A stretch of 64,000 nucleotides of DNA from Leptospira sp. (lineage in GTDB: Bacteria; Spirochaetota; Leptospiria; Leptospirales; Leptospiraceae). Position numbers and translations under genes: made by a program. The stretch is from positions 96,001-160,000 of the forward strand of contig JAWXAQ010000030.1 in the NCBI GenBank assembly GCA_034439575.1, written 5' to 3'. Positions within the stretch are counted from its first letter, which is position 1. Each line of letters begins with the position of its first letter. Positions 5,392-61,865 of this stretch are shown here, one piece after another. The notes below the pieces were generated by a model, which made no database searches, was not told where the DNA came from, and was given only the letters and a program-made list of their open reading frames with translations.

Positions 5392-5495
5392 TTGTTAAAC
5401 GACATGAACAGAGCATAATTTAAACCAAAAAGTTTAAAAATTTATTTATTTACTTAAAAAAAATAAATTAGGAAATATGAAATAATAATAATATT

Positions 5496-6219: not shown

Positions 6220-6651
6220 ATGAATAGTAATTTTAAGTTATTACACAACATAAGCGAATTAGAGGGCACATGCTATATCGAATTTTTACCTGGAAAATAT
6301 ACAGGCAAGTGTTGGAATGAAAGTTCAATTTATATCAATGAAGAAACATTCTTAATATTTGAAGATTTATTTAAAGAGGTTTTAATAAACTACGACCATT
6401 ATTCTTTCAATGAAATGCCTGCATCCAAAGTTAGGTTACTTAAAGTAAAATTACATCAAAGAATCTCAATTCTAAAAAACCTTCAAAACAATTTATTGAA
6501 TGGAGAAACACTTTCTCTTCAAATTAATGAATTATTTACACAAAAATTTAAATCGAATCAAATTGAGATAATTCAAATGTTGGAGAATTTCTATGATTGG
6601 TTAAAAAAAATTGAAACTCAGAATATTCCACTTTCTATATTAGGAATTTAG
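6220..6651 (+). CDS. Hypothetical protein
   Basis: 143-aa ORF with plausible composition in an AT-rich patch; no recognised motif. Confidence 0.6.
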   Translation: MNSNFKLLHNISELEGTCYIEFLPGKYTGKCWNESSIYINEETFLIFEDLFKEVLINYDHYSFNEMPASKVRLLKVKLHQRISILKNLQNNLLNGETLSLQINELFTQKFKSNQIEIIQMLENFYDWLKKIETQNIPLSILGI

Positions 6652-6993
6652 ATAGATCAGATTTGAATGAAAATGCCCCAAACAAATAAAATTGCATAAA
6701 TAAATAATTTTCATTCATCTAGTTAATTTTATAAAATAAGATCTTATATAAACAGATCGAAACTATTAAAAAGTATTACTAATTATTTAAATTTCAAATG
6801 TAAATTTTTAGTAATGGGTTAGTGAGTATAAATTGCATTTAAACTTGATGAATAAGCCAAAAATATTAAACTAGAAATTCTTTCAAATTGGCTATTCGAT
6901 GAAATTTCGAAAATACGTCATAATGATTCAAAAGTATAACTCTATTGATTCAATATAATATCAGAAATCCTTAATGGTAGAACTTGGTCTTAC

Positions 6994-44044: not shown

Positions 44045-46474
44045 CTAGCGAGTCTCATTGCCAGTTGTAAAATTCCATTTCTTTTTCCAAACTCTCTTAC
44101 CTCTACGAATGCCTTCCGATTCTACAGTATATGTTTCGTTCGGTTCTAAAGGATCTCGACTCATAATCCAAATTTCAGTTTCACCACCAATTCCATATTT
44201 TCCATCAGAAGGCTGAATCAGCCAATGTGGAATTGTTTTACCAGAACTATTTTGAAGAATTGCCTTAAAATCTTTTATGTCATAAGAGCGATCTGAATAG
44301 AATTTAATTACGATCGGATATCCCACAATTTTATCTTCGTCATCTAACGGAGTCGTGTTGGGAATTTCATTAATCATAGTTAATGGAACATTCTGTTGGT
44401 TTTCATAAGGATACACTTTTACATCAGGAGCTGTGTGCTCCATCATATTCAAATATTGGTGATTTAAACCTACGACTCGCATTACGGCTTTTTGTGATTT
44501 TTGATTTTCAGATTCCGCATATCCAAATCCCACTTTAAGTAAACCAAGGCCTGTGATTGGCCTTCGATGTAAAATAGTTTGGTTCCAAGTATCCACGGAT
44601 TCTTCACCTTTGTCGTTGTTAAATGAAATTGTTTCACCTTGATACCCATATCTAAATTCCTTTTTTGAACCTTCAATTGTATACAGGGGAAGAATGGGAT
44701 TTTGATTGTGCGCACCCAAACCCTTTGTGGTTGGATGGTTTTCATTGGCAACGAGATATCTCGCATGAGCTTCTGAAGCTAAGGTCAGACGAACGTCCAT
44801 TTCTAATGGTGGTGCTCCGTAATCAACTCTAAGTCGATTGAGTTTCTCAAATGTTTTTCGATATAATACATGTATTCTCTCCTTAGGAGGAGATAGATTC
44901 CAATAAATGATAACTGTATTTGGTAACAATTGTTTGAGTTTACTTAGAGCCTCTGGGTTTAGAGGATTTCCATCGATATGTATTGATTTTAATGATTTTA
45001 GTCCTTTCATAGATTCAGGAAAATTTGTAATCTTATTATTACGTAGACTCAAATATTCCAGACTTTTTAATTTCCCAAGTTCATCAGGAACTATGGTTAG
45101 GTGATTATCACTTAAATCCAACAAATTCAAATTGTTTAAATTTCCAATGGATTTCGGAAGGGAATTTAATTCATTACCGCCTAGAGAAAGCTCATTTAAA
45201 CTTTTAAGGCTACCAATAGTATCTGGTATTTTTTGGATTTTATTTCCAAAAAGATTTAGCAATTTTAATTTTTTTAATCCTTGGATGTCAGTTGGGATAG
45301 TTGTGAGTTGATTGAAACTCAGATCCAGTTCTTGGAGATTATTCATTTTACTGATTGTCGATGGAAGGATGGTAAGTTTATTAAATGTTAAATATAAACC
45401 TTTTAAATAAGATAAATATCCAATATTTTCGGGAAGGGATTCGATTTGATTAAAACTCAATTCCAAAACCTTCAGATTTTTTAATGCACCGATTTCTTTG
45501 GGCAATGATTTAAGCGAATTTTGTCTAAGGTGAAGTATTTCTAGTTCTGTTAGGTGTTTGATCTCGGGCGATATACTTTCTATTTTATTGTTCCATAAAT
45601 AAAAATGAGTCAGGCCTTTCAATCCTTTGATATCAGAAGGGATTTCATTAATTTGATTCGAATGCGCCCAAAGTTTTTTCAATGAGCTAAGTTCATTTAG
45701 ATCATCAAATAGCGACTCAATTTTGTTATGTGCAATATTAAGTGAACTCAATTTCTTTAAACTATTAATTACAGTTGGCCATTCTGAAAAATGGTTGTCC
45801 ATTAAATTGAGATCATTAATATTTTCTAAATTCGCAAATGAATCAGGTAATTCATTCAATTCATTGGTTTCGAAATTAAGACCTTCTAGAGATTTCAAGT
45901 TTTCAAAACTTTTTGGCAATTCCCGAATTTTATTATTAGTAGCACTCAACCATTTAAGTTGCGTTAAATATGTTATAGAGGCCGGGAAACTCTCAAATTC
46001 ATTTTCATTCAATGAAATTCCTTCCAGATTTTTCAATTGATTGATACTTTCAGGAAGGAACGTTAGACGGTTTGAAGTCAATCTAAGTTCGGAGAGATTT
46101 TTTAAGGCACCCAATTCGGAAGGTAGTTCCCTTAAACCAGAACTTATCTCCATTCGCTCAATGAAATCAAGACTTTGGATGCTAGGTGTAAGATTTTCAA
46201 AGTCACCATATAACTCAAGCCGTTTGAGGTTTTTAAGAGTTTCCCAATCCTTAGGAACATCCGTGGATTTTGTGTATATAGTAAGTCTTTCTAAGTTTTT
46301 GAACTTGGTGAGACCTTTGGGTAGCTCATCTAGATTCTTACTAAGTGATCCTAATGTTAGTCGAGACCTTTGACTTGATTCACTTTGAATTTGTTGTTCA
46401 ATTGATTGTCCCGAAATCGAAACAAAAGTGAAAAAAACTAAACTCGACGTAAGGATAAAATTTCTAAATGACAT
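44045..46474 (-). CDS. Secreted leucine-rich-repeat protein fused to a CAP (SCP) domain and an Ig-like C-terminus
   Basis: Signal peptide; about 20 23-aa LRRs (LxxLxLxxNxLxxLPxxIxxL); CAP motifs 'LNRLR...APPL..D.RL..A..AHARYL', 'GETI', 'HRRPI...VGFG'. Confidence 0.85.
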   Translation of the reverse strand: MSFRNFILTSSLVFFTFVSISGQSIEQQIQSESSQRSRLTLGSLSKNLDELPKGLTKFKNLERLTIYTKSTDVPKDWETLKNLKRLELYGDFENLTPSIQSLDFIERMEISSGLRELPSELGALKNLSELRLTSNRLTFLPESINQLKNLEGISLNENEFESFPASITYLTQLKWLSATNNKIRELPKSFENLKSLEGLNFETNELNELPDSFANLENINDLNLMDNHFSEWPTVINSLKKLSSLNIAHNKIESLFDDLNELSSLKKLWAHSNQINEIPSDIKGLKGLTHFYLWNNKIESISPEIKHLTELEILHLRQNSLKSLPKEIGALKNLKVLELSFNQIESLPENIGYLSYLKGLYLTFNKLTILPSTISKMNNLQELDLSFNQLTTIPTDIQGLKKLKLLNLFGNKIQKIPDTIGSLKSLNELSLGGNELNSLPKSIGNLNNLNLLDLSDNHLTIVPDELGKLKSLEYLSLRNNKITNFPESMKGLKSLKSIHIDGNPLNPEALSKLKQLLPNTVIIYWNLSPPKERIHVLYRKTFEKLNRLRVDYGAPPLEMDVRLTLASEAHARYLVANENHPTTKGLGAHNQNPILPLYTIEGSKKEFRYGYQGETISFNNDKGEESVDTWNQTILHRRPITGLGLLKVGFGYAESENQKSQKAVMRVVGLNHQYLNMMEHTAPDVKVYPYENQQNVPLTMINEIPNTTPLDDEDKIVGYPIVIKFYSDRSYDIKDFKAILQNSSGKTIPHWLIQPSDGKYGIGGETEIWIMSRDPLEPNETYTVESEGIRRGKRVWKKKWNFTTGNETR

Positions 46475-47130
46475 TGGTATATCTCCTACAATCGCCTTCG
46501 TTTAAAATTAATATGATAGCTCGAAAATTATACTGTCACTAGTAAATGTGCAACTCTAATATTTATTCTGATGATAAACTATACATAGAAAATTATGTTA
46601 TGAAATTTAATCTTCCTGATCGTTACTATTCATAAAAATCGAATCAAATGAATACTGCTGGGATAAGAATAGATTTAGATTTTCTGTAACTTTAAAATAG
46701 GCTCTATTTGTTAATATTTAAGGCAAAGTTAAATCTAAAAAGCACATATAGCAAAAGATAGAAATTCATGCACCAAAAATTATTCAAGAGTTTCAAACTA
46801 TCTAATGTATTTTTTTTGCTTTTTACAATTGTGACACATTTAATAATATAACGACTGTTCCTAGGCTTGATCAATTACAAATCTCTCATCATTTCAAATC
46901 ATTAAAATTTCCGAACATGGTATTAAAAATTTGGATTTATCTTACAGCACTACCCGAAAAGAGACTTATACTCAAACAGATTCTATTGAAGGCATTTACA
47001 AATACAAAAACCAATATTCCACTCTTCCTACACCATATGTAAATTTAGTAAATTAGAATTATTTAAAAAGTAAATGTAATCTTTAAAAGTTGGATGAAGT
47101 TTGATTAAATTAAAATTAGTAGGCCCCTTT

Positions 47131-47321
47131 GATGTGTTATATGGATGAAACTTTATCGAAAGAACCGATCCCGCTCTCCCTAAGACGAGGGCACTCTGTC
47201 GAGCAATAGCAAACCTCGTTCCCATCTCCCTTCCCTCTCACCTCCGTGTTCGAAGGAAGGACTCCGACATCCATGTCTCCGTTACCGATGGAAACAAGGT
47301 TTGCTGGCCGAAGAAAGATCG
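47131..47321. repeat. Composite repeat, copy 1 (block A 47131-47181, hairpin block B 47209-47321)
   Basis: A is 49/51 identical to 51106-51156; B core 47215-47305 is 90/91 identical to 50962-51052. Confidence 0.95.
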
Positions 47322-47654
47322 TGTAACGATATCAATGATGGGCTCTCACATTCTGCAAAAGTATTATAAATTACGCTCTCATCCCGTTCTTTGTGGGTTC
47401 ATAACCTACTTACATCTTTTGAAACAGCCGCCTAAATAAAGATAACATTCGTTTTTCTGTGAAGTCTCTCTGCTTCTGGCGAAGGATTAGTTATGTACGA
47501 AAATCATTTCTTTTTGAAAATTAGTTCTATTCTATTTGTAAAATCGTGAACTAACTAACAATTTGTAGACTAGCAACGAACAATAAGTTTACTGTGTTGT
47601 GAAAATTTCTGTCTTAACGTACATAGCTTCTACGATTGTAGTGTTTGCGAGATT

Positions 47655-48218
47655 TCATGTTAAATTATTTAAAATCCCGATCGTAAAATTTATAATTTCA
47701 TTCCATTCTGTATCTGAAAAATTTGGAGTGTATATTAAGTTTATAGTAACTCGAAATGTTTTTTTATACTTTTTGTGGTAATAAAATGCAATCACCTTTC
47801 CCCCGATTACTTCACTTGGTCCATATAAAATTTCCATTTTTTCTGTTTTATAACGGATAAATTTTTTCCATCGATTGACGGATGTTGGTTCAAATTTAAA
47901 GTCTTTTAATTTTGATTCGGTGACAATTTCTTCAAATCTCTTTAATGAATTAGGGATTATAGATACATCAATTAACAAAGAAAAACATTCATTCTCTTGC
48001 AGGCAATCTGCTTTAAAATAAGTTATCGGATATTTTAATTCCTGTTGAACAGAATCAATTCTTTCTGTTACTTTTGGAACATAAAGTCTCATAGATTCAA
48101 CTTTTTCTTCTCTTACAGGATAAAAAGCGATGCCTCGATAACTTTTCGTTAAATCTAATTTCTGAGCATTTAGAAGAGTAAATGAAAGCAGACACAACAA
48201 AAGAACTAGTCTTATCAT
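47655..48218 (-). CDS. Secreted hypothetical protein (candidate orphan immunity protein)
   Basis: Signal peptide MIRLVLLLCLLSFTLLNA; co-oriented, 38 nt downstream of the lipoprotein gene. Confidence 0.7.
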   Translation of the reverse strand: MIRLVLLLCLLSFTLLNAQKLDLTKSYRGIAFYPVREEKVESMRLYVPKVTERIDSVQQELKYPITYFKADCLQENECFSLLIDVSIIPNSLKRFEEIVTESKLKDFKFEPTSVNRWKKFIRYKTEKMEILYGPSEVIGGKVIAFYYHKKYKKTFRVTINLIYTPNFSDTEWNEIINFTIGILNNLT

Positions 48219-48256
48219 TTCGTCACCTAATGATAGTTTGCATCTAATTTGAGCTA

Positions 48257-49024
48257 CTACGGCTTTTCATAACTCGTTGGATCATAAATATCTGCATCAA
48301 TTTTCCGTTTGTATTTTGTTTCATAAGCAGATACAAATTTTTCCATCTGACCCTCTGAAACTTTTTTCCATCCTTGAAACATAACCATCTTTAAAGAAGG
48401 CAGGTTCAACATACAATCTAGGCTTTTTTTAGTTAGGTTGGTCATATCATCCATGCGAAGGAAAGTAAGGTTTTTTGCATTTTCTGTGAATTTGCACATG
48501 CCTTCATCTGTGATTTTTGCACCAGGCCCAAGAATAAATCGATCTAATTTTAATACGTGCGAAAAACATTCAACATCATTGTCTAATAGAGGGACGTGGC
48601 TGTAATCTATTTTTACCTTAGGTGCTTTTAGTCCTTTTGCAATCTCACATATCTGTTTGTGGTTTAGTTCGCTTCCTCTTATAAAAAGTGTCGTTAAATT
48701 AGAATTCTTGCATGCGCTCATTTCCTGGTCACTGAAATCTGGCAAGGCACCCCAAGATATATCTAAGAAATTTAATTTCTTTATCGAACATATGGTTACA
48801 AGGTCTTCCGGTAAGTAAATTCCCTTTCCAGTCATTTCAATTGCAGGGATTTTTTCTTTCGTTGAAGCATCGAAAGTCTCCATATAATATCGATAGGACC
48901 GAGAAGTGAGATTTTTGATCAAATCTTCATCCGACAGGCTTGCAATCCGTGAAGTCGCCGTCGAACAAGCATGAAGGACGAAAGACATTAGAACGAAAGA
49001 TAATTTCTTCAAAGAGTATTTCAT
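48257..49024 (-). CDS. LRR-like lipoprotein (candidate immunity protein for the 49027 module)
   Basis: Lipobox 'VLHAC'; Cys-containing LRR-like units ('KITDEGMCKF...KNLTFLRM', 'LPSLKMVMF'); starts 2 nt after the upstream stop. Confidence 0.7.
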   Translation of the reverse strand: MKYSLKKLSFVLMSFVLHACSTATSRIASLSDEDLIKNLTSRSYRYYMETFDASTKEKIPAIEMTGKGIYLPEDLVTICSIKKLNFLDISWGALPDFSDQEMSACKNSNLTTLFIRGSELNHKQICEIAKGLKAPKVKIDYSHVPLLDNDVECFSHVLKLDRFILGPGAKITDEGMCKFTENAKNLTFLRMDDMTNLTKKSLDCMLNLPSLKMVMFQGWKKVSEGQMEKFVSAYETKYKRKIDADIYDPTSYEKP

Positions 49025-49026
49025 TC

Positions 49027-51021
49027 TTATTTCCTTGCTATATAATCAAAATTATAGGGCGCATATGTTGCATATTTGTTTAAATCGTTCTTAGGATTCC
49101 CCAATACTGACCCACTCACATTCTCTGGATCAAATTCCGTTCCATTCACAGTTGTCGATTGTGACCCATCTACCACTGTGTAAGTATAACGTCCATCCTT
49201 CATCGGATTCCTTTGTAAACTGATTGTATGACCAGTTCCACTACCATCATCTTTCACTCGCAATGTGATCGCTAATGGTTGTTCTTTCTTTAGAAAATCA
49301 GCAATGACTTGATATCCTTCTGCGCGTGCCGAAGCAACTGAAGCAGGATTGGATCTGTCGCCTTGTGGAAGTGGCGGATGAGATTTGTCATCATTCCATC
49401 GCTGGAAAGAACCATTGCCATTCATATAGGAATTGATTACCGCGCTTGTGCCACCTTGAGGTCCATTCAATTCCATGTTCTCAGGTTTCATAAAACCATT
49501 GTCAGTAATGTCCTTGATGAACTGTGGAAAATCTGGAATGGCATCACCTAAATTTCGTTTTAACATTCCCCAGTTAGCTGCTGCTACACACCACCTCTCA
49601 CGTAAGTAATCTGGCATACTTTTAGAATCTATGCCAGCCTTTACTGCTTCGGCAGTGGCATATGAAAGAGTTTCTGGCTTTCCCCATTGTTGGAGGGAAC
49701 CTTTTGCCTGGTTCGCATAATAATTTGAGTCTTGATGAAAAACTTCCCCAATTCTAAAATTCCCAGTGGCTTCATTTACATAAACATTCAATGCTAATGG
49801 TTTCGTAGTTGCAGGGAGAACTTCGATCACTCCATTCTTTGCATTGAAGAGCTTCTTCATTGCGTCAGAGATTACACCAGGTTCTTTTTTGAGTCCACCA
49901 GATTGGATCAGATCTTCTCTTGTATTACCTACTGTTTTTATAACATCGTCCATGGATTTACCATATTTCTTTTCAAAGGATGCTTGGGCTGCTTTCATTG
50001 CATCCGATTTTTTTGTCAAATCCGCCTGCATTTCTTTAGATATAGGCATATTATTGGATACAGACTCTATGCTTTTTGAAAGAGCATTCTTAAAATCAGC
50101 TTCTGCTTTTACATATTTATGAACTGCGGATTTTACAGAAGGATCCATTTCTTGGCTTAACATCGGATTATTTAGAATGTCTATTGCCACTTCCATTCTT
50201 TGCGTTTTCGATAATGATAAATCTTGTGCTTTTTTAAATATTAAGCGCTCCGATTCTGCCTTTTTAATAGCATCCATTTCCGTTTTCGTAATTTTAATCA
50301 TTTCATTCTGAGTTATTGTTAATTCATTATTATACTTTATCAAAGTGTTACTTAGATATTGAATTAATTGGGTTTCATTTTTTGGAACGAATCCTGGATC
50401 TTTTTGATGTAAATGGTTATATTCACCAACACCTAAAACCACTCTTTCAATCTGACCTCGAACTGCCTCGATATCCAGTTTCGCTTGTGAGGCTTTATCA
50501 TTCAATTCAATGTATTTCGGATCTAATTTTAACTCAGCAATTTTATTCTTAGCCTGAGTAATTCTCTCGTTTATATTTTGTTCTTGTTCGCTAATGATGC
50601 TTGTCCTGTCTGCATGCATGTTTTCAAAAGCCATCAAAGATTTTGTCACCGTATCTTGCATTGATCCCATATAAGCCCTTGCTGTATCAGTGGAACTAAC
50701 GACTGTCCGTTTTGGTAAATCGGGAACATTGATAATTACCTGTCCGCCATTATCAACTTTTACGTATACTCCTTTCTTATCTGAAAGCGAAAGAATTTTT
50801 GATTCCTCAATCAACTTTAATCTCTCGGAATCTGGCATTGCATTGATTAAATCAATACCTTCATTAGGTGTATTCGAAAATTTTGGTTCGATCAGTATGC
50901 ATTTAGGAATCTGGCCTTCCGTATAACGTGAATTATGTTTATTACCCAGCCCAGGCAAACGCTCGTTCCCATCTCCCTTCCCTCTCACCTCCGTGTTCGA
51001 AGGAAGGACTCCGACATCCAT
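49027..51021 (-). CDS. Orphan C-terminal toxin-like module with putative papain-like Cys-His-Asp domain; 5' end derived from a repeat
   Basis: No signal peptide; the first ~21 codons lie inside repeat B; coiled-coil body; 'RWCVAAANW', 'GHTISL', 'VVDGS'. Confidence 0.65.
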   Translation of the reverse strand: MDVGVLPSNTEVRGKGDGNERLPGLGNKHNSRYTEGQIPKCILIEPKFSNTPNEGIDLINAMPDSERLKLIEESKILSLSDKKGVYVKVDNGGQVIINVPDLPKRTVVSSTDTARAYMGSMQDTVTKSLMAFENMHADRTSIISEQEQNINERITQAKNKIAELKLDPKYIELNDKASQAKLDIEAVRGQIERVVLGVGEYNHLHQKDPGFVPKNETQLIQYLSNTLIKYNNELTITQNEMIKITKTEMDAIKKAESERLIFKKAQDLSLSKTQRMEVAIDILNNPMLSQEMDPSVKSAVHKYVKAEADFKNALSKSIESVSNNMPISKEMQADLTKKSDAMKAAQASFEKKYGKSMDDVIKTVGNTREDLIQSGGLKKEPGVISDAMKKLFNAKNGVIEVLPATTKPLALNVYVNEATGNFRIGEVFHQDSNYYANQAKGSLQQWGKPETLSYATAEAVKAGIDSKSMPDYLRERWCVAAANWGMLKRNLGDAIPDFPQFIKDITDNGFMKPENMELNGPQGGTSAVINSYMNGNGSFQRWNDDKSHPPLPQGDRSNPASVASARAEGYQVIADFLKKEQPLAITLRVKDDGSGTGHTISLQRNPMKDGRYTYTVVDGSQSTTVNGTEFDPENVSGSVLGNPKNDLNKYATYAPYNFDYIARK

Positions 51022-51156
51022 GTCTCCGTTACTGATGGAAACAAGGTTTGCTCAGCCGAAGAAAGATCGAAAATAAACATCTCTTTCTTTCCGTTGGGCA
51101 CCTCGGATGTGTTATACGGATGAAACTTTATCGAAAGACCCGATCCCGCTCTCCCT
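50955..51156. repeat. Composite repeat, copy 2 (block B 50955-51069, block A 51106-51156)
   Basis: Direct-orientation copies of the 47.1-47.3 kb blocks, but in swapped order. Confidence 0.95.
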
Positions 51157-51191
51157 CGACGGTAACGCTCGGTCGATCGGTGGTGCAAGAC

Positions 51192-51833
51192 TCATTTATT
51201 TTTTTCTTCCTTTTCTGGACCAACAATATCATAGGAAGAATTATTTTTTTGTATTTCGGCTATTTCTGCTACCGTCGTCACACATTCTTCATAAGTTGTA
51301 TAGTCAATCCCTGCTCTTCCATCGTCTAGAACTGTATCTGAATTTAAGGCATAAAACTCAAATTCGCGAAAGACAGGAGTTGGATCTTTGTAATTACCAC
51401 TGTAAATCATTTTGAATCGTAATATTTTGGTCTCGCTTTCATTGGTTAAATAAAAAAAGTCTCCTTTCTTTGACAAAAATTTCAAATGAATATCGAATTT
51501 GCGTCCAGTGGAACGAAAGCGAAACAAATTCTTATCGGGTATAAATTCACCACAAGATGTAGCATAAATAGGCCGATATTCCCAAGCATTGGAAGCTTTT
51601 TTTCGAAGATCATCCTCAATATATTTCAAAAATGTATCATCTGGGTCTAAAATAACGACTCCTACCAACTCAGGATAGTCCATCAAAGTAAACTTTGGAT
51701 CAGTATATACCTTTATATCTACTATCGAGTTAGAAACTGATTCTGTCTTAACTTTTTCGTCAACTTTTTTGCACGCAAAAGGCGGAAGACTCAAAAATAA
51801 TATTAGAATATAATAATTTAGCTTATTTGTCAT
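51192..51833 (-). CDS. Lipoprotein, candidate cognate immunity protein of the giant protein
   Basis: ATG at 51833 overlaps the giant ORF stop by 11 nt; MTNKLNYYILILFLSLPPFAC lipoprotein signal. Confidence 0.75.
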   Translation of the reverse strand: MTNKLNYYILILFLSLPPFACKKVDEKVKTESVSNSIVDIKVYTDPKFTLMDYPELVGVVILDPDDTFLKYIEDDLRKKASNAWEYRPIYATSCGEFIPDKNLFRFRSTGRKFDIHLKFLSKKGDFFYLTNESETKILRFKMIYSGNYKDPTPVFREFEFYALNSDTVLDDGRAGIDYTTYEECVTTVAEIAEIQKNNSSYDIVGPEKEEKNK

Positions 51834-54800
51834 AATAAATCCCATAGACTGGGTGATCCTTGAAATTAACTGGCAGAAAATCACCGCTTTCTCTTTCTCC
51901 ATTATTGTTCATATCATACCACTTTCCATCTGTTCCTTTGATGATCAAATTGTAATGATTGCCACCTGGACGATCTTTCCTATCTGTATCTCGATAAACT
52001 TGAACAACTTCACCAGGTTTTCGATCTGCTAAAATGTTGTTTACTTCGACTGTTGTAAATGGTCTTGATACACCAACAATCCCATTGTCAGTAAAATCAA
52101 AATTTGGGGAATTATTTCCCGTTTTCGTTCCAGTAAGATCGAGCCTACTTTCAACTCGGGTTGTATAACCGGCAAGATTATTTTGATCCATAACTGGTTT
52201 AGGTGGACTAGAACTATCTGCTCCGATATCTCCTATCCTAAACTTTGTGATCAGATATTCAGAAAAACTAGCAGACGTTTTGTTGTTTGCCACTGCAAGA
52301 GTATAATTAGCATAAACTTTACATAATTCCGCTGTTGTATTCTTTGCAATCGCGTCAGTCGATGCTGCCTTGTCGCCGAATATATAATTCTTGATAAATT
52401 CGAAGTTTTTACTCCCCGATGGATCTCCTGCAAAAGTAAAATTATCTTTTCCTTGATCCCTGATCGTGGCAAATACAAGTTCCACCATTTTTGACATCCC
52501 ACCATTCTTACTCTGATTGACAATTGTTGGGTCAAGTAACTTATTCATAGCGTTGATTCTGTCTTGTCCTTCCAGAGAAGCAAAACTCCGTCCTTCCAAC
52601 TCTGGCATATTTGCTCGAAGAAACTCGTCTGGTGTTTGATTTGCTCGTTCAATTCCATCAAGTTGAGCCTTTGTCAGACCCTCCACCGTTCTCATATTTT
52701 CTGCTGTATCAGAAAGTGTTTTTTGATACGGTTCCGCGACCTCTGGAATTCTGTCGAATTGGGCCTGTAAATTAGACGAAGAAACCGATATGGGCTCACC
52801 CAATTTGACAGAGTTCAATTTTTCTAATGGTCCATTAAAAGTCTGCGTGGTCGGATCAAAAAATTTCTGATGCAAGAAAGCATTCATCTCGGTTTTCAAT
52901 TTTCCAAAGGAAGTAACCTGAGCAGAAAGTTCATCATTTCGTGTGCGTACTTCTTTAATAATTTGTTTTTCAAGCTGCTGACTTTCAAGATTCGCTTTTT
53001 TATAGTCAACCGATTGATTCTGTAAATCCTTGATCTGTCTCACTAGAGTCATTTCCTCAGGACTTGAACCTTTAATTTGTGAAAGAATCTTCACGAAATC
53101 AGAGTCTTTACTCTTAACATCCAATCTTAAAACTTGTTCTAACAATTTTGGCTTACCATTTAAAAAACCAGATATATTGTTCTCAGACGAATTGCGATTT
53201 AATAACAATTCACTGCTATTTTGCCCACCAAGTTCAAATTTAAGTGTATCAAATGCGTTCTTTGTATCAGTAAGTTTTTGAATCAGCTTTCCTTGCTTGA
53301 CCTCGCTTGGCAATGGCTTAGATAATCTCTCAATGGCGCTCTCTACATTTGATATTTTGTCTCCAAAGTTTGTTTCAAATTCTACCCTATATGCTAATGG
53401 CATAGACTCAGAAATTTTTGAAAATGTATCATGAATTTTTTCTGATGGAGTTTTATTAGGAGTCCCCAATTCCGACGAGCCAAAATACTGAATACCAAGT
53501 GTTGATCTGATGAAACCCCCACCCGAATTGTCTGTCACATAAACCACATTAGGCTCTCCTCCGAGACCAGATGTCTGCCTTACATTATCAAAAATAGCCA
53601 TATCGCTTGCGTTAGGTGTGCGTATACTTGTTTCACCTGTGATTTCATTTAAAACGACTGTTTGCAATCGACCATTTTCATCTTGTCGAATTGCTTTCAA
53701 TGAACCATCTGCTTCACGACCATAAATTATACCTGAATCAGGATCTACCCAGTATCCATCTCGATCGATACCTTCATACATTTTTCGTCTTCGTGTTTCA
53801 ATCGCATCAACAGCTACGTTATTATTTGTTGTATTGTTAGGCGCCGCATTCCCAGCCCCTCTTCCTAGTCCAACGAACGCTAACAAGGCGGCACTTGTCG
53901 TGCCTAAGATTCCCATAGTTGCATCAGCAATCCCATCAGCACTGATCATGCCATCTATATGGTTAAGTGCCAAGCTTCTATCATATTCTGACATTCTATT
54001 GATTTGGTCAGATGTATACTGTCCGCTTTCCACTATTCGATTAGTATCTATGATACGAATGGCATTCTCTCTTGCTATGGGATCCATTCCACGAATTTGG
54101 TCTTCCGTATAATATGATCTAAGTTTAATATCTGCAGCTCTCGCTCTCTCGGCATCCCCCGTCATATCTTGCGCCAAATTGATATTTTGCTCAGCCCAAT
54201 TCATCTCATCATACTGGAAGCCATCTTCTGTCATTGTCGCTAAATTTACACCATGTAACTGTAGTGAGTTCGACAATCCGTTAGTGTCAATGGTAGCATT
54301 ATAGCCAAGTCCCGTAGCACTATCTGTATAGCCTACTGTTCCGGATACTTGCCCTCTATTTGTATCATAGTTCGCTCCAAAATTCCAACCTCGTCTTGGT
54401 CCTTCATTACTTGGATTATAGTTTACCCCTACTGTAGTTGAACCGTTAGTCGTTGAAGAGCCTGTTACTTGAACTCCTTCTATTGACGTATTATAAGACG
54501 CGTTAATGGTTGTATTTCCCCTCTGAGAAAAGGATATACTCGCATTAGTCATATCACCACCGATTCCGATCATACCGCCCCAACCAGCTCGCCTATCGTA
54601 GGTAACTCCAAGACCAAGTGTCGTACCGGATAATATACCGGTTCCGCTGCTGAATGTAAAGTTCCCATTAGCAGTCATCGCTCCTAAAAATCCGTTTGCA
54701 AAGCCTGCAAGCATGCCTTGCGTTCCATTCCGACTACCATCTATCGTCTGTACGGCTCCGTTTAGAATCGCGGCCGTTAATCTAGCACTGCCAGATACAG

Positions 54801-57800
54801 CGTTCATTGTTCCTTGCAATGCAGGGCCAAATGCACCTGCCGCTCCTAATGTTACAGCTGTTGTAACGGTAGTGATCGCAGTTGACCGAACAGCTTCTGC
54901 TCTTGCTTTTTTATCAGCACGACTTTGTTCATAACGACTTACGGTATTCCTTAGAGATGCATTTAATATTTCTTTTTCATCGTCTGTCATACCGACTGAC
55001 AGTGCCTCAACGGCCATCCTTTGACCAAGTTCCTTAGTAAAACCTTTCTTGTCTTTAATGGATGGTGTAGAACTCGTATAACTAGTACCAGGTGCTTTCA
55101 TACCAGATGCTTGATTCATAAAAGCATTTCCTTGTGCCTCGAGTGTACTATCACGAGTAGTTGAGAAAAGAACGCGTGTGGAATCACTAATCATCTCTTG
55201 AATGTCCCTTTCAGGCACTCCAACTGCGACCATTGCTGTTTTCACAATACCTCCTCCTATTCCCATGACTTGAGACATTATATTCATAACCGGATTAGCA
55301 TTGATCGCTTGGCGTGTTTTTTTGGCTTTTTTTGCTCCATAATAATCAGCGATTGCATTTCCTACGACTTCGAGCGGAAGGCCGGTAGATGTTGCTACTG
55401 CTTGTGTTCCAATGGACTGTATGATTGATTGTTCATTCGCCTTAATCGCTGCTAGTTTGTCTTTAGATCGTGTACTGGCATTAATAGTTGCCTCGTATTT
55501 CTTCTCTCCGACCGCTGATTTGTACATTACTGAAGCCATAATACCTCCAGAAGAAAACATTTGTGTAAAGGCGATAGCTGGCGTTAGGATAGCACTGCCA
55601 ATATCCGCCTTCTTAATCTTCCTTTCTTGCACCTTACCTTTCATAAAACTTAGAGCTTGTGCAAGCTGTCCTATCTGGCTTTCATCGGCACCTGTAGCTC
55701 GTGCAAACGCTGTGGCGATATCCATATTGATCTTATCTTCTATCTTGCCTTTGATTGCACCCTTAACTCCCGCCATACCACCGCTAATGTAGGCAATAAT
55801 GAGATCCTTCACAAGTGAATCGTGATTTTCTTGTTCTGTTTTGGCCTTTTGGAATTTCCTTTCGTTAGCGGATTCTACAGAACGAATATCGGCCACAAGA
55901 CTTCCGACGATAGAATTGTCTTTGGCCAATTGTTTAGTATAAAAATTGTTCATCACGGCATTTGCTTGGGCACTAAAATCTTTCCAATCTGCTTGTTCCC
56001 ACACATCGAATAAATCTTTGCCAGTAGGCATAGTAACGGGCGCGACATTGGAAAGTGCTATCGTTCTAGTTTCCGATTGTCGACCACTTAAATATTTTCC
56101 AGAGGCATCTCTACCTTCAATGCGCCCATTGCTAATAACTTTAGTAAGTGTCGCAACTTTGGTTGCTGTATTAAATTTTACTTCGAAATCTTCTCGTAAT
56201 AATCTCCCCCCACCCTCGACACTTACACAATTATGTGGGTTCGCATAACAAGATCCAACTCTTTCTTTTTGTTCCTTGGTGAGTAATTTCTTATCTGCTT
56301 CGGAAAGAATATCTAATTTAATTCTATCTTCTAGATCACCATAGGATCTAACAATCATCCCATCCTGGTATTCATATCCGTCTTTTTTTAACTCATTCAG
56401 AGTCCAGCCATGAACTAAACCAAAGCAGTTAGCATCTTTGCCATGTTCTACTTTACAGGCTGCCATTTGTTTTTCATATCCCTTGGTATCTGTCAGAAGT
56501 TTCAAAGCATGATTCACTTTGGCATCACCCACAAAGTTCCCATTCTCATCAAATCGTCCCACCGCCCGATCTTCCCAGCGGATTCCAAAAGCTTGTCGAT
56601 TTAGCATTGTCCTCTGTTCGGCGATCGCATTCTCTTCGTTTTTAGAATTTACGGATAACAATTGTGAATATTGATAAACACCATTTACGGTTGTTTGCAA
56701 AATTTGAGTTATATCTTTATTACCTATATTGAGGGAAGTATTTACTGTGATTTGCGATTCTGCATTGAAAAGATTCACACCATTCACTGTTTCTGAAATC
56801 AGAGATGTTAGATTTGCAGAAAAAGATGAGGTCACACTCGCTATATCCGTATTAGTTGGAGTAGAATCCTGATATGCTGATTTTAATTTAATCTGTGCTA
56901 TATTTTGGAATTGGTTTGCATCTCTGGTACTGCGAACAGAGACAGATTGTCTCTCTAGGTTATCCCATTCGCTCTGTCCTTGGATAAACTCATCTTGGAT
57001 TTTTGATAGCCATCGCTGTTTTCTCTCATCCAATGCGGCAAGAGCCGTTTCCCTTTCCTGTGTCGCCTGCGTGCGTGTTAAATCAGCTTTAACCTTCCAT
57101 GCTGTATAAAAGTCATTATAATCTTTTACTTGTGATTCCCAAGCTGTCGCCGCTGGGATAAGGTTCATTTCATAATTATTTATCTGATTATTTAGAGAAT
57201 TTTTGATTCCATTCCAATAAGTGGTATGAGCATCTTTATTGGCATCATATACTTCGTAAGCTAGGGCAAAGGTCACATGATCCATTTGGAATGCTGTTGC
57301 AGTAGGACCTCGCAACAAAAAATAGGTCCGATAATCGAATCCATTTTGCCTATCCATATTCATATTACCTTGCTTAACCGCATTGTTATCACATGGCAAT
57401 GGGACTATACATTCCGATCCACCTTTGGCGATACCAGTCCAACCTAAATTATCTCCCACCGCATGTTTATTCGCAAAGGCAGTATCTCGGGTATAAATAT
57501 TATAATATACATTTGTTCCTGTGCGAATCGACTGATCGGAACTTAAATAACGCTGTAATAAAGCTTGTATACCTGCTTGGTTGCCAGTATGCATATAGTG
57601 AAGTAGTTCGATATGATCTCCTACTCCTAATGAATAATTAAAAGGATTATTGTTAAAATCCGCAGCTAGACCCCATGCAAATTCACTAGATATATTTTTC
57701 CAATGTTCATATCCTGCATGATTGATAGTCCCTATCATATTTAAAAGTGAGGAAGGAGCAATGCTTGTCCTATCATTAAATTTATTATAAACTTGATATA

Positions 57801-58797
57801 TTTGAGATTGATAACTCGTATAATTTGAATTTGCTGTCAATCGCTGACTCGTTAAATAAGTATTCAAATTTGTAGCAAGGGTACTTATTGAAAACGATGG
57901 TGAGATCGTAGTTGAATCCACTTCTGTTCTAATTGCATTCACCAATGCTTGTAAGGTGGCCCCTGCTGTATTGATCACACCATTATTATCACGATAGGCA
58001 CATCCGTCTGCCACCGAACATGCTGCGTTCAATTCTACTTGGAAGCCATCAATCATATCTTTAATCGCTCTTTTAACTTCCTTTTTATACTTGTCTATTT
58101 CCGTTAATTGGCTTTGGAAGTTAGTATCCGATCCATCAAGAGAGTTAATCACCTCCGCATAATTTCTTTCAATTTGATCTGCGGCTTGCGTAAAATCATA
58201 ATTCCCCTGAACATAGCGATCGCTATACACAGACTCCCATTCCGATCTCGCTTCCAACATTTGATTTTGCAAGGCAGCTTGATTAACAGTTTCATTAGTC
58301 ACATTTCCTAACAGAGAACTTTGCACGATTAGGCGATCAAAATATACTTCATTCACGCGACCAGTATTCAGCCTTGCTATAAACTCACTTTTGTTTTGTA
58401 ATAAATCTAAATTTGCATTCTGTTCCCAAACATTCAAAGCATCTTCTTTTTGTGAAAATAATGATCTCTCCACGTAATCTTTGTATGCCGCCACATCGTT
58501 AATTGCATCGCTACTAGTAATAGAATCTACATAGTCATAGATTGCATCGTCTACCGATGCTTCCCAGGCTCCTCGAATCAATCCTTGATAGTAAGTTATC
58601 TGCTCAGACCAGGTGGTTAAGGAATTCAAAAAATAACTGTGTCCATAAACTTCGCTCATTAGGTTGGGATCATATTGGCTTATATTCAAATTTAGAACTG
58701 TTGCTTGTGAAAAAATAGATTGGATAAAGAAAAAGACAATGATTACAATCGAAACGATAAAATTTTTTCTGCCAACAAACGATAATTTATCTTTCAA
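51823..58797 (-). CDS. Giant (2324 aa) TIGR04388-like Leptospira protein, putative polymorphic toxin
   Basis: Signal peptide with GAGG RBS; N-terminus ('...DAINDVAAYKDYVERSLFSQKEDALNVWEQ...') resembles the TIGR04388 family from memory; coiled coils, Gly/Ala hydrophobic helices, beta-rich segment, C-terminal 'ELCKVYANY...NHYNLI...WYDMN'. Confidence 0.75.
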   Translation of the reverse strand: MKDKLSFVGRKNFIVSIVIIVFFFIQSIFSQATVLNLNISQYDPNLMSEVYGHSYFLNSLTTWSEQITYYQGLIRGAWEASVDDAIYDYVDSITSSDAINDVAAYKDYVERSLFSQKEDALNVWEQNANLDLLQNKSEFIARLNTGRVNEVYFDRLIVQSSLLGNVTNETVNQAALQNQMLEARSEWESVYSDRYVQGNYDFTQAADQIERNYAEVINSLDGSDTNFQSQLTEIDKYKKEVKRAIKDMIDGFQVELNAACSVADGCAYRDNNGVINTAGATLQALVNAIRTEVDSTTISPSFSISTLATNLNTYLTSQRLTANSNYTSYQSQIYQVYNKFNDRTSIAPSSLLNMIGTINHAGYEHWKNISSEFAWGLAADFNNNPFNYSLGVGDHIELLHYMHTGNQAGIQALLQRYLSSDQSIRTGTNVYYNIYTRDTAFANKHAVGDNLGWTGIAKGGSECIVPLPCDNNAVKQGNMNMDRQNGFDYRTYFLLRGPTATAFQMDHVTFALAYEVYDANKDAHTTYWNGIKNSLNNQINNYEMNLIPAATAWESQVKDYNDFYTAWKVKADLTRTQATQERETALAALDERKQRWLSKIQDEFIQGQSEWDNLERQSVSVRSTRDANQFQNIAQIKLKSAYQDSTPTNTDIASVTSSFSANLTSLISETVNGVNLFNAESQITVNTSLNIGNKDITQILQTTVNGVYQYSQLLSVNSKNEENAIAEQRTMLNRQAFGIRWEDRAVGRFDENGNFVGDAKVNHALKLLTDTKGYEKQMAACKVEHGKDANCFGLVHGWTLNELKKDGYEYQDGMIVRSYGDLEDRIKLDILSEADKKLLTKEQKERVGSCYANPHNCVSVEGGGRLLREDFEVKFNTATKVATLTKVISNGRIEGRDASGKYLSGRQSETRTIALSNVAPVTMPTGKDLFDVWEQADWKDFSAQANAVMNNFYTKQLAKDNSIVGSLVADIRSVESANERKFQKAKTEQENHDSLVKDLIIAYISGGMAGVKGAIKGKIEDKINMDIATAFARATGADESQIGQLAQALSFMKGKVQERKIKKADIGSAILTPAIAFTQMFSSGGIMASVMYKSAVGEKKYEATINASTRSKDKLAAIKANEQSIIQSIGTQAVATSTGLPLEVVGNAIADYYGAKKAKKTRQAINANPVMNIMSQVMGIGGGIVKTAMVAVGVPERDIQEMISDSTRVLFSTTRDSTLEAQGNAFMNQASGMKAPGTSYTSSTPSIKDKKGFTKELGQRMAVEALSVGMTDDEKEILNASLRNTVSRYEQSRADKKARAEAVRSTAITTVTTAVTLGAAGAFGPALQGTMNAVSGSARLTAAILNGAVQTIDGSRNGTQGMLAGFANGFLGAMTANGNFTFSSGTGILSGTTLGLGVTYDRRAGWGGMIGIGGDMTNASISFSQRGNTTINASYNTSIEGVQVTGSSTTNGSTTVGVNYNPSNEGPRRGWNFGANYDTNRGQVSGTVGYTDSATGLGYNATIDTNGLSNSLQLHGVNLATMTEDGFQYDEMNWAEQNINLAQDMTGDAERARAADIKLRSYYTEDQIRGMDPIARENAIRIIDTNRIVESGQYTSDQINRMSEYDRSLALNHIDGMISADGIADATMGILGTTSAALLAFVGLGRGAGNAAPNNTTNNNVAVDAIETRRRKMYEGIDRDGYWVDPDSGIIYGREADGSLKAIRQDENGRLQTVVLNEITGETSIRTPNASDMAIFDNVRQTSGLGGEPNVVYVTDNSGGGFIRSTLGIQYFGSSELGTPNKTPSEKIHDTFSKISESMPLAYRVEFETNFGDKISNVESAIERLSKPLPSEVKQGKLIQKLTDTKNAFDTLKFELGGQNSSELLLNRNSSENNISGFLNGKPKLLEQVLRLDVKSKDSDFVKILSQIKGSSPEEMTLVRQIKDLQNQSVDYKKANLESQQLEKQIIKEVRTRNDELSAQVTSFGKLKTEMNAFLHQKFFDPTTQTFNGPLEKLNSVKLGEPISVSSSNLQAQFDRIPEVAEPYQKTLSDTAENMRTVEGLTKAQLDGIERANQTPDEFLRANMPELEGRSFASLEGQDRINAMNKLLDPTIVNQSKNGGMSKMVELVFATIRDQGKDNFTFAGDPSGSKNFEFIKNYIFGDKAASTDAIAKNTTAELCKVYANYTLAVANNKTSASFSEYLITKFRIGDIGADSSSPPKPVMDQNNLAGYTTRVESRLDLTGTKTGNNSPNFDFTDNGIVGVSRPFTTVEVNNILADRKPGEVVQVYRDTDRKDRPGGNHYNLIIKGTDGKWYDMNNNGERESGDFLPVNFKDHPVYGIYYDK

Positions 58798-58946: not shown

Positions 58947-61865
58947 TTAAAAAAAGGTTCTAATTTTAAAAAAATAAACTTCAAAATAACTATGTATTTT
59001 TATATTAAATTTTGCCTCCCAATCTCTAATGATAAAGACAGTGAAAATATATAGAATAAATTGCATGCTGATCATTAAAATTAGGTAAAAAAAACTAATA
59101 ACCGCTTGAGGTAACATTAGGATGAATAATAACAATAGACATTCGAAAATGAAAGTCATTCTATTTATATGTGCAAGCGGACGTTCACCGAACCATAACA
59201 ATATTGGTTGGGATAATAGAATTCCAATCTGAAAAGATATATTTAAGCTAGTAGAAAAGAAAAATTGTAAAAGAAAAAAGGAAATAATATATGGAATAAA
59301 AAAATGAAATACCCAATGAATAGGTTCAATACTATTTTTATATATTAAAAATATTGTAAAAAACAAAAGCGAAGGATAAATCAAAAAAAATATTTTCTTT
59401 GAATAAAATTCGTTAGTTGATGCATTATCCGCCGATTCGATTCGATAACCTTCAGGTATTGAAATTTTTTTTACATAACCAATTAATTCATCTTTATCCG
59501 ATTGTCGATTTCCTTCTAATTTTACAGTAAAACTCAAATTACGCTGTCTATTTTTATGGTAATACTTTAATGGAATATTTTTTTCCTGAACTTTAACAAT
59601 TTCAGATATCGGTATAAATTCTCCTTTTTTATTTTTAATTCGTATAGATTTGAAATCACTTTTTGTATTTCTAAATTTTTCCATAAAACGTACTCGAATA
59701 TCTATTTCTTTTTCTGAACTAATGTATTTAGATATTACCCCACCTTGCAAAGCCAGACGGAGCTCATCACCAAATGTTTGTATATTTAAATCTGACGCAT
59801 GCAAGGCTTCGAAACTTGGAAAAAGTTGTAATTCTGTTCTAGCTTGTTTGTATCTCAAAACGACTTCATTCACATTCTCTAAATATTTTAATTTTTCTGA
59901 AATATTTTGGGTTAAGGATTCTAATTCTTTTTGATCATATCCAATCACATCAAAAGTTACTTCGGAAAAACTATTCGAATTTTCTTCGATTGCAAAAAAA
60001 AGAAAACCATCTGCAGTAGATCCAATTTTTTGCTTCAAACCAATTATTAATTCTGAATCAGGCAAATATCCGTCACTTAATGTTATTATTAAAAGTGCAT
60101 GCCCCGGTTCAATTTTTGAAATAACTTGTGCGACTTCTTCAAATTCCTTTAACTTTTTTTCAACTTGCAATGATACTTCATCCGTATGGGAATAAGATGT
60201 CCCAGAAGGAAATTCTAAAAAAGCCACCAATTCATTGTTATCTGAATTTAATGAATTCAAAAACTCGAGTTTAGTAATTGAAAATAATCCCAAAAGTATT
60301 AAAAATATTAAGCTCAAAGGAAATAACTTTTGATTTGAAAGTAATGGAACTGTGATTTTTTCTCTAAATTTAAATAGCCAAGCATTTAAAAATTTATATA
60401 TTTTTTTATTTAGGAATATTAACTTTTTCGATTTTTTAATATCTTTTATAAATTTAAAAATTAAAATGTAAGAACTTATAGCATAATAATCTAACAGAAT
60501 GAACGCACATATACCATATAATAAAAAACTAAAATAAAATCTAAACAATTCCCTGGAAATGAAGGCAGAAAATCCCAAAGAAAAAATTAAATAAATACAA
60601 AATTTTCCGATTTTACGGAAAGAATTAAATTGAATGGAGTTCGTATTAAATTTGAGATCTATAGAACGAAAATTATACCAAAACAAAGATCCTAATACAA
60701 TTCCGTAACAATTGGCTAGATTACATTTACCACCGAACAAATATGTGATGAATATGATTGCATAAAATGTAAAAGGAATTGAAATAAAAAACAAAATAAA
60801 GAAAATTTGATTTTGTTTATAATATAAAACAAAAATCATCAAAATAGATATAAGTATGATTACACTAAGACCAAAATATGTATTTGAAATTATTAACGAA
60901 TCATCTTGGTTATAATCGACATCAAGGCCGATATCATTTTGAACTGAGGTAATCTTTTTGATTTGATTCGCTATATAAAGTGGATCGCCAGATTCATTTT
61001 TATATAAAAATATTGAAACTTTTTCGGTAGCATTTAATCTTGCACCAACAAAATCATCTCTCGGAGAATACCCCACAGTAGCAATGTCTTTTAGATAAAC
61101 ATATTTTCCTTTTTGATCTACACTTAACGGAAGTTCATTCAATTCCAATATCTGATTTATTTTTTCACGAAGTGTTAATGAAATTAATTCTATGTTAGTA
61201 GATATTTTTCCTAATGATATGCTTGTATTCTTATCTTGAATTTTATTTACAATATCTCGCAAACTAAATTGGTAAGACTCAATCTGATGAGCATCACATG
61301 AAATCAATATTTCTCGAATTTTTCCACCCGCCACTATCACCAGGCTTAGTCCATCTATTGATTCATAAGCTCTCTTAAGTTTTTTCTCTACAATTTCTCT
61401 CAATTCATCTTGAGTTAAGTTCTCTTTTGAAAATGAAATGACCATCAAAGGGGAATTAGTCGGATCATGTCGAAATACTTGAGGCTTATGTACTTCTTTC
61501 GAAAAATTAGAATTAATTAAATCAAGTTTTTCTCGAAATTCCAAAGATTTCAATTTTAAATCAACATTTTCATCCATCTGAATTTGCAAAAGGGAACTAC
61601 CATCTTCAGAAACGGATGTTATTTTATGAACTCCTCCTACTTGTGATATAACTCTTTCTATAGGAGATGTGATATCACTTTCAATTTTTGAAGCATCAAA
61701 GCCATTTGCTTCCGTACGAATGGCAATACCCGGATAAACCTTTTTATCTTCTCGTTTAAAAGTAATTTTCTGGAATGATAAAATACCCAACAGAACCAAA
61801 AATAATCCAAACATTAGCATTAAAGTTGGATTTATTTTTTGAATCTTAAGAAATAAATTAACCAT
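58947..61865 (-). CDS. AcrB/CusA-family RND permease, highly divergent in its TM regions
   Basis: 'IESDITSPIER', 'SVSEDGSSL', 'GGKIREI', 'LKDIATV', 'FPSGTS', 'IPISEIV'; very AT-rich, with eroded TM segments. Confidence 0.8.
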   Translation of the reverse strand: MVNLFLKIQKINPTLMLMFGLFLVLLGILSFQKITFKREDKKVYPGIAIRTEANGFDASKIESDITSPIERVISQVGGVHKITSVSEDGSSLLQIQMDENVDLKLKSLEFREKLDLINSNFSKEVHKPQVFRHDPTNSPLMVISFSKENLTQDELREIVEKKLKRAYESIDGLSLVIVAGGKIREILISCDAHQIESYQFSLRDIVNKIQDKNTSISLGKISTNIELISLTLREKINQILELNELPLSVDQKGKYVYLKDIATVGYSPRDDFVGARLNATEKVSIFLYKNESGDPLYIANQIKKITSVQNDIGLDVDYNQDDSLIISNTYFGLSVIILISILMIFVLYYKQNQIFFILFFISIPFTFYAIIFITYLFGGKCNLANCYGIVLGSLFWYNFRSIDLKFNTNSIQFNSFRKIGKFCIYLIFSLGFSAFISRELFRFYFSFLLYGICAFILLDYYAISSYILIFKFIKDIKKSKKLIFLNKKIYKFLNAWLFKFREKITVPLLSNQKLFPLSLIFLILLGLFSITKLEFLNSLNSDNNELVAFLEFPSGTSYSHTDEVSLQVEKKLKEFEEVAQVISKIEPGHALLIITLSDGYLPDSELIIGLKQKIGSTADGFLFFAIEENSNSFSEVTFDVIGYDQKELESLTQNISEKLKYLENVNEVVLRYKQARTELQLFPSFEALHASDLNIQTFGDELRLALQGGVISKYISSEKEIDIRVRFMEKFRNTKSDFKSIRIKNKKGEFIPISEIVKVQEKNIPLKYYHKNRQRNLSFTVKLEGNRQSDKDELIGYVKKISIPEGYRIESADNASTNEFYSKKIFFLIYPSLLFFTIFLIYKNSIEPIHWVFHFFIPYIISFFLLQFFFSTSLNISFQIGILLSQPILLWFGERPLAHINRMTFIFECLLLLFILMLPQAVISFFYLILMISMQFILYIFTVFIIRDWEAKFNIKIHSYFEVYFFKIRTFF

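Follow-up and report, generated by a model that had tools for sequence, protein, structure and literature searches.

The silent pilS cassettes of Neisseria are 5'-truncated copies joined head to tail by short conserved repeats, beside one expressed gene, and mosaic repeats such as REP/BIME, ERIC and BOX are modular, structured, dispersed and tandem-prone, with their modules in series. Orphan toxin/immunity modules are known from Rhs and contact-dependent inhibition (CDI) loci, according to the available excerpts of PMC3150448 and PMC3967940. Here we describe an orphan module that lies between direct copies of a repeat, next to a giant gene of the TIGR04388 family, in a stretch of 64,000 nt from a Leptospira sp. 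(assembly GCA_034439575.1, contig JAWXAQ010000030.1, positions 96,001 to 160,000; hereafter the window). The two repeated blocks, A and B, are modules of one composite, strand-specific, folded non-coding element, F-A-P0-B; in this Leptospira genus, it makes up the 3' end of units that consist of a TIGR04388 giant gene and its partner gene. The data suggest that the element helps in the duplication, swapping or loss of cassettes.

The repeat-bracketed cassette

The window corresponds to C30:96001-160000 of a 37-contig, 4.1-Mb metagenome-assembled genome that is 99.98% complete, and every gene in the cassette region sits on the minus strand according to the list of open reading frames (ORFs). 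Three models of the repeats were employed: R1, the first model of B; R2, for the F hairpin; and R3, for B plus B-like forms. The features, in the reading direction of the genes, are the following.

51823-58797, minus strand: TIGR04388 'Lepto_longest' giant gene, 2324 aa (NCBIfam 192.3 bits, E 1.1e-56, above the curated cut-off of 45)
51192-51902, minus strand: 236-aa ORF in the partner ('immunity-like') position directly 3' of the giant gene (ORF list)
51138-51189, minus strand: short-form Flavo-1-like hairpin F, which opens the right unit (R2 30.4 bits, E 1.6e-5)
51097-51156, minus strand: right copy of block A, the 3' arm of F plus the A tail (repeat search, sequence read)
50952-51074, minus strand: right copy of block B, P0 lead-in plus three-way junction (R1 125.1 bits, R3 96.9 bits)
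49027-51021, minus strand: 664-aa orphan ORF (ORF list, six-frame homology)
48257-49024, minus strand: 255-aa partner gene of the orphan, 'immunity-like' by linkage (homologue linkage)
47655-48218, minus strand: 187-aa ORF, third cassette gene (three-gene block conserved in locus L062)
47205-47326, minus strand: left copy of block B, P0 plus three-way junction, without a preceding F-A (R1 139.9 bits, R3 99.1 bits)
47122-47204, minus strand: degenerate F remnant plus left copy of block A, the start of a next unit broken off before P0-B (repeat search, sequence)

An initial sequence-only reading had noted two near-identical blocks flanking the cassette in permuted order, and both blocks were recovered. 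The copies of B at 47215-47305 and 50962-51052 match over 91 nt with one mismatch, a near-identity that far exceeds chance and stretches to 115 nt at 96.5% once indels are allowed; those of A, at 47122-47181 and 51097-51156, match over 60 nt at 92%, including a 51-nt core with two mismatches. On the plus strand the order is indeed A-B on the left and B-A on the right. The order itself stands, but it reflects no rearrangement. The complete unit spans ~250-300 nt and runs from F (a Flavo-1-type hairpin) through the A tail, a variable spacer and the small hairpin P0 to B, with the next unit directly after it; this serial F-A-P0-B-F-A order is visible in tandem arrays on contigs C22 and C35. On the right stands a single unit, F(short)-A-P0-B; on the left, P0-B runs into a truncated, degenerate beginning of the following unit, and the swapped order of A and B is hence no more than a shift of phase. 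The right F begins 3 nt past the stop codon of the 236-aa ORF, and the left F remnant escapes R2 at E <= 0.01. In the right B, the 3' arm of the closing stem P1 has an additional bulged base, and the orphan ORF continues out of this B copy.

The pair could also be an assembly artefact, or a meaningless chance juxtaposition of generic repeats. The genome is assembled from a metagenome, and the contigs of four public runs break at every B copy. However, contigs assembled separately from two of these runs, X1 and X4, each hold the 3,707-nt piece 47285-50991, which terminates inside B on both sides, so that the cassette is truly B-flanked; the depth of this piece (about 11x and 13x) equals that of its flanks. 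The two A copies of the window have in common a private inner segment that is missing from other copies, and since this variable segment matches between left and right they are sisters. Furthermore, other species show this architecture again, in genomes that are complete or independent. We consider an artefact, which the initial reading had named as its possible undoing, highly improbable; the joins of the cassette to its outer flanks rest solely on the genome assembly. A 'goes back' joint in the contigs was discarded as a cassette signal, as it belongs to another copy with 16 differing letters, and a stretch left uncovered in run X8 was likewise given no weight.

The orphan module and its partner gene

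The 664-aa ORF had been taken for an orphan module beside two immunity-like genes, and six-frame searches of the genus bear it out as an orphan C-terminal module with a cognate partner gene (a search restricted to longer proteins gave no match). Over residues 1-579 it shares 25% identity with the C-terminus of a 2682-aa ORF in L067, and it is 41% identical to a 2427-aa ORF in L068. The C-terminal 200-600 residues of the orphan correspond to the C-termini of the 2682-, 2427- and 2358/2359-aa giant ORFs of L067, L068 and L070, whose N-terminal ~1,700 residues align with the window giant protein at 34-44%. A homologue of the 255-aa gene lies directly 3' of every C-terminus of this type examined (L062, L063/L069, L064, L065, L066, L067, L068 and L070). 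The orphan also has a full-length stand-alone homologue (P0001, 58%), the three-gene cassette block recurs in L062, from another species, at 63-78% identity, and stacks of such C-terminal fragments with their partner genes occur in other species (L069). The first 20 codons of the ORF are B read as protein; its true start is likely M62 at 50838, which gives 603 aa.

Residues 8-1717 of the window giant protein align at 34-44% with giant ORFs from four other loci and the rest is unalignable; by alignment, ~1,700 N-terminal residues are conserved and the C-terminus is variable. More generally, TIGR04388-type giants appear, from these comparisons, to be polymorphic at the C-terminus with co-varying partner genes, and we propose that those of Leptospira are polymorphic, module-swapping proteins. 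The 236-aa ORF is single-copy in this genome and matched no Pfam or NCBIfam family; the 187-aa ORF gave nothing above the Pfam threshold and one match below it. A C58 YopT-type peptidase label that one source attaches to the homologue P0002 was not reproduced by Pfam.

As in Rhs and CDI orphans, the window module combines C-terminal homology to full-length members with a cognate small gene after it. The stretch from the conserved region of the resident gene that such an orphan would keep as a substrate for recombination is absent in the window, and is present at 82-99% identity in the orphans of L070, L077, L078 and L079. The suggestion that non-coding repeats act here rather than coding homology hence fails as a general statement.

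Units at the ends of TIGR04388 operons

The R2 scan covered 25 sources and 432 kb, with 20 giant genes from 12 genomes. A co-oriented F lies at most 3.7 kb downstream of 12 of the 20 giant genes, and at most 1.9 kb downstream of 11. From the 11-41 R2 matches per genome, simple arithmetic gives a chance expectation of ~0.2 cases for these 12. With the Rfam Flavo-1 model, L070, L068 and L067 each show a match right behind the partner gene(s), and the latter two have a second one behind the following gene block. In other species, F is followed by the A tail, P0 and then either B or a diverged, B-like form whose helices each align with those of B; the short F form of the right window copy is also found at the TIGR04388 loci L077, L079 and L082.

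The R3 family occurs in 33 of the 41 genomes of the genus, with 28-48 copies in five and 0-10 in each of the others. Twenty low-copy genomes together hold 52 B-like matches, six of which lie co-oriented 0.6-2.2 kb downstream of a giant gene (chance expectation ~0.02), each following one 211-217-aa gene. In genomes G037 and G009, the copy downstream of the giant gene is the only B-like copy. The proposal that the repeats mark cassette boundaries at TIGR04388 loci in other species is therefore borne out, far above chance.

Breakpoints of displaced modules and a proposed mechanism

Four loci hold an orphan and a resident gene that are still duplicates at the DNA level. In all four, the homology begins at most 2 nt from the 3' end of the B-like element.

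L070 junction: 99% identity to the resident gene over 1,521 nt, homology from gene nt 2799
L078 junction: 97% identity to the resident gene, homology from gene nt 2583
L079 junction: 96% identity to the resident gene, homology from gene nt 2763
L077 junction: 84% identity over 2,215 nt, homology from nt 2268 of a gene truncated at the locus end

The four junction sequences are mutually unrelated and have at most 1-3 T's in common with the element end; all four lie in one codon phase (chance about 1 in 27). L085 presents the same B-end junction at the protein level. As the displaced copy begins at the B 3' end after the element of the partner gene, orphan cassettes come to be bracketed by direct element copies: by two F-B units in the window, L077, L079 and L085, and by F alone in L067 and L068. 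The orphan ORFs are open through B in four of five cases, with 49027-51021 of the window and L070:7928-9640 in the same frame. Some B copies, not all, contain an in-frame ATG with a nearby GGAG. In L085 (G016:C1:2207000-2221000), a giant TIGR04388 gene at 1838-4762 is broken into pieces of 263 and 706 aa, followed by an opposite-strand ORF of 341 aa; further downstream come a C-terminus/partner pair and then the orphan cassette between its two F-B units.

The reading towards which we lean, if only slightly, is that the folded element closes giant-gene units and aids the duplication, swap or loss of cassettes. Duplication or displacement of the 3' part of an operon would break at the B 3' end, where the B hairpin could serve as a stall point, a template-switch point or a cut site. 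Homology for swapping the variable C-terminus/partner module would come from the element, conserved 3' of the module, together with the gene core, conserved 5' of it, and direct element copies would let modules be deleted or looped out.

Several observations weigh against this reading. The 20 giant genes were our own pick among the strongest rows of the giant-gene search; eight of them, the second locus of this genome included, have no co-oriented F downstream; and part of the training copies for R2 and R3 came from TIGR04388 loci, with three of the 12 positive giant genes feeding R2. The six low-copy cases probably represent one kept ancestral placement and not six independent events, because all six loci have the same convergent neighbour gene. 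In this genome, about 30 of the 32 B copies lie away from TIGR04388 genes, which leaves room for an element of a generic kind, be it selfish or regulatory. The window orphan and the resident giant gene show no similarity (best BLASTP E-value 0.28), so swapping through core homology is impossible there now. The contigs of the four public runs stop at B and none bridges a copy; no excised circle, deletion joint or empty site was seen in them, and their graph is equally compatible with an integrated cassette or a circle. Finally, the orphan and its putative toxin domain matched no Pfam family or PDB relative, and the presumed toxin and immunity functions of modules and partners are drawn from architecture.

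Fold of the element and a possible role at the RNA level

The initial description of the repeats as non-coding and structured is upheld by pairing and covariation in an alignment of the B family, which holds 37 copies (35 distinct) from this genome plus other genome and metagenome contigs. The proposed fold is a three-way junction: P1 closes it with 17 pairs, P2 is a small hairpin, and P3, the longer arm, contains an inner stem. Over the 35 distinct copies, 92.5% of cells pair, versus 43-52% when the partners are slid by 1-3 columns. Nine of the 30 pairs are altered on both sides (99 cells), a covariation score reached by none of 500 shuffles, and the long arm exists in three compensating versions. 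The claims on structure are based on this alignment only and not on R1, whose mis-registered structure string pairs 51% of cells and which finds copies by sequence. A U-G pair is retained in 32 of the 35 copies, and B is hence specific to the gene strand in its fold; the predicted energy is -88.7 kcal/mol (z -2.1) on the gene strand and -69 kcal/mol (z -0.9) on the opposite one. A coding origin of B was rejected on account of 1-3-nt indels between copies and the covarying paired positions, and B matched no Rfam family. By eye, 13 of 15 nt of the inner arm resemble the loop-C region of the 5S rRNA of this genome; an origin from 5S rRNA was considered and dropped, as the 5S model fails on B. Both apical loops of B contain GGA (AUGGAU or CAGGAC in P2, ACGGAG in the P3 inner stem, e.g. 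at 50952-51074), and may thereby resemble CsrA binding loops.

In full-length units, the linker and the 5' part of A coincide with the Rfam motif Flavo-1 (RF01705), at 55.5 (L015:3467-3562), 53.5 and 50.4 bits against a gathering score of 42, and full-length F hairpins score 42-64 bits in all. The A/F copies of the window fail this model, with no match at E <= 1 in 46000-52500 or at E <= 10 in 50930-51210. This genome holds 33 Flavo-1 matches, 23 of them above the cut-off, and matches occur in 40 of the 41 genomes of the genus. In the available part of its description (Weinberg 2010, PMC2864571), Flavo-1 is a motif defined computationally and without an assigned function, and it ranks among the most abundant Rfam "small RNAs" in that of PMC9029176.

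A strand-specific fold at operon ends invites another explanation, namely that the element is mainly an operon part acting as RNA, be it a 3'-untranslated-region stabiliser or terminator or a 3'-derived small RNA, and that recombination is incidental. At orphans it might be an insulator or a translation-start region, each module keeping one copy from need. The better folding of the gene strand and the kept U-G pairs are in keeping with this, as are the six core-type loci, in which the unit stands at the operon end facing a convergent gene, and an array on contig C11, where B is followed by a same-strand hairpin and T-run that we read by eye as a terminator. The orphan ORFs that run open through B, the single codon phase of the four DNA-level junctions and the GGA of the P2 and P3b loops would also fit, the last by a likeness to CsrA sites that is presumed. 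On the other hand, neither unit of the window has a predicted promoter-like or terminator-like site, and copies elsewhere in the genome occur in either orientation relative to their neighbours. In another phylum, the available part of a Flavobacterium transcriptome study describes Flavo-1 matches sense or antisense to transcripts, many of them not transcribed (PMC9723704). A role as RNA also leaves unexplained why duplication breakpoints coincide with the B end to within 2 nt. We regard it as possible, though on the unlikely side.

Copies elsewhere in the genome

A search with the right unit (nhmmer) gave 30 matches at 13 loci on nine contigs, so the element has spread to 12 further loci in this genome. 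The tie between A/B and TIGR04388 loci thus holds as an enrichment across the genus and not within this genome, where the window is the only TIGR04388 locus among the 13; the second of its two TIGR04388 loci, on contig C13, is without any copy. The copies are intergenic, often abut stop codons, and stand singly, in clusters or head to tail, as in the arrays at C22:28996-29482 and C35:36152-36937. Genes bracketed by B are mostly accessory: two vapBC pairs, another PIN-domain gene, an Rpn/YhgA-like nuclease, a DJ-1/HxlR/F420-reductase block and several ORFs without known function. In a synteny comparison for inserted blocks, genes that flank B in this genome stand far apart in all relatives.

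Such a distribution could also be that of a selfish, non-autonomous mobile repeat, like a miniature inverted-repeat transposable element (MITE) or REP, that favours these regions, the orphans being giant genes cut by adjacent deletions. Copy number does jump between species, from 0-7 in most to the 28-48 of the five rich genomes, and copies at unrelated loci are 97% alike. It also differs between strains: a contig 98.7% identical to the genome (L046:3436-4151 vs C22:29000-30260) lacks one of the F-A-P0-B units of the C22 array and carries, immediately next to the Flavo-1 start, an unrelated 372-nt segment in place of 642 nt. A fixed element end combined with variable gene positions is the signature of adjacent deletions, and P1 could pass as 18-bp inverted ends. 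Yet conserved sequence runs past P1 on the 5' side, inspection of 26 copies by eye revealed no target-site duplication, and no multi-copy transposase was found beside the copies; the Rpn/YhgA-like gene next to one of them was discounted as a transposase, being single-copy. A REP/RAYT system was likewise rejected, as PF01797 (Y1) is unmatched in this nearly complete genome, in a search whose control was positive in 6 of 14 genomes. The one, probably orthologous, position kept in six species, two of them without another copy, and the 99% identity of the L070 orphan to its resident gene, which fits duplication better than a truncated separate paralogue, also speak against a selfish repeat. We therefore think it unlikely.

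Directly downstream of the left repeat of the window, 44045-46474 on the minus strand encodes an 809-aa protein that combines leucine-rich repeats with a weak CAP domain at its C-terminus. Two large ORFs, of 972 and 713 aa, directly precede the giant gene at 58947-63999 on the minus strand; the shorter one is still open where the window ends. Contigs of two other organisms have B copies within ~0.2-1 kb of rRNA genes (5S; 23S 3' end; L054:3986-4434 and L041:2-1378), much as the C11 array does at its end.

A XerA-like recombinase beside B

Contig C11 encodes a 305-aa tyrosine recombinase of the XerA type, and 6 nt past the end of its gene begins an array of five B copies, which separate two vapBC pairs and three small ORFs (L013, G000:C11:39500-47218, positions 1192-7719); the array ends near a 5S rRNA gene (L013 7611-7719, minus strand). 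B is followed in this array by a further repeated module, which has in common with the 5S gene the 3' end with its hairpin and T-run. Next after the array comes an ORF (L043:4853-5380) that matches the Pfam family Cass2, 'integron-associated effector binding protein', at E 9e-13, and also the common GyrI-like fold.

These observations raise the possibility that F-B is the recombination site of a dedicated XerA-like recombinase, in an integron-like platform that captures, stacks, loops out and reshuffles cassettes. Such a platform would carry giant C-terminus/partner modules, vapBC pairs and others, with a recombinase and a folded site unlike those of classical integrons. The resemblance to attC arrays lies in conserved folded sites that separate small accessory cassettes in direct order, in a strand-biased fold and in an extra bulged 3'-arm base in some copies. 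Of the attC architecture of R and L boxes, unpaired central spacer and extrahelical bases, only AAC...GTT at the stem ends and this bulged base were observed. The stem is otherwise a perfect, continuous run of 17 pairs with no unpaired central spacer, and copies lie scattered over 13 separate loci. No integron-integrase signature is present in the recombinase: the family it fits best is NF040815 XerA-type (231.3 bits vs a cut-off of 220), and a classical integron integrase was excluded at 162.2 bits on TIGR02249, split in two stretches, vs a cut-off of 265. Among solved structures it comes closest to archaeal XerA, while IntI4 ranks third with a split match. Orthologues (51-59% identity) occur in 18 of the 41 genomes, ten of which have a B-like copy at most 9.1 kb away and three at most 0.4 kb. 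This link is weakened in that common ancestry may account for eight of the ten cases and that the orthologue is missing from four of the six genomes with at least 10 copies. A direct-repeat search at six loci found no repeat array beside the recombinase orthologues, where R3 shows single B-like copies. The proximity in ten genomes is a lead only, and we hold the platform to be improbable. In the available part of PMC3607928, Treponema is the only spirochaete clade known to carry integrons, and our literature search for Leptospira with integrons or attC, or with polymorphic toxins or orphans, found nothing on these loci.

Comparison with known systems

With mosaic repeats, F-A-P0-B shares the modular, serial and tandem-prone build; it differs in the lack of a RAYT-type transposase, in a placement at a specific operon end that is conserved across species and in its exact link to gene-duplication breakpoints. 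As for the pilS cassettes, truncated gene copies are linked by conserved non-coding repeats here too. The protein, the repeat and the bacterium are others, however, and any gene conversion here would be putative.

Like Flavo-1, the full-length F hairpins are multi-copy and intergenic, whereas the F copies of the window are short or degenerate. In the literature found that names Flavo-1, so far as its text was available, no function is assigned and there is no link to a B junction, to TIGR04388 boundaries or to orphan breakpoints; TIGR04388 received no mention in the literature searched. The units described here would thus give Flavo-1 its first genomic context, and B is a newly defined structured motif of the 33 genomes in which it occurs.

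The closest parallel is with the Rhs and CDI loci, as far as the available excerpts describe them: a giant protein, conserved in its body and variable at its C-terminus, has a small cognate gene after it, and displaced 5'-truncated copies with their own partner genes are stacked downstream. In contrast to these, the window orphan is without homology to the resident gene, and any toxicity or secretion of TIGR04388 proteins is putative. The main difference is the folded non-coding unit between modules, at the 3' end of which the orphan exactly starts. In module stacks of Rhs, CDI and type VI secretion system loci, turnover is explained by homology inside genes; here, a folded non-coding element is both part of the module and the exact breakpoint of each displaced copy examined, and it offers a handle on how such arsenals are rebuilt.

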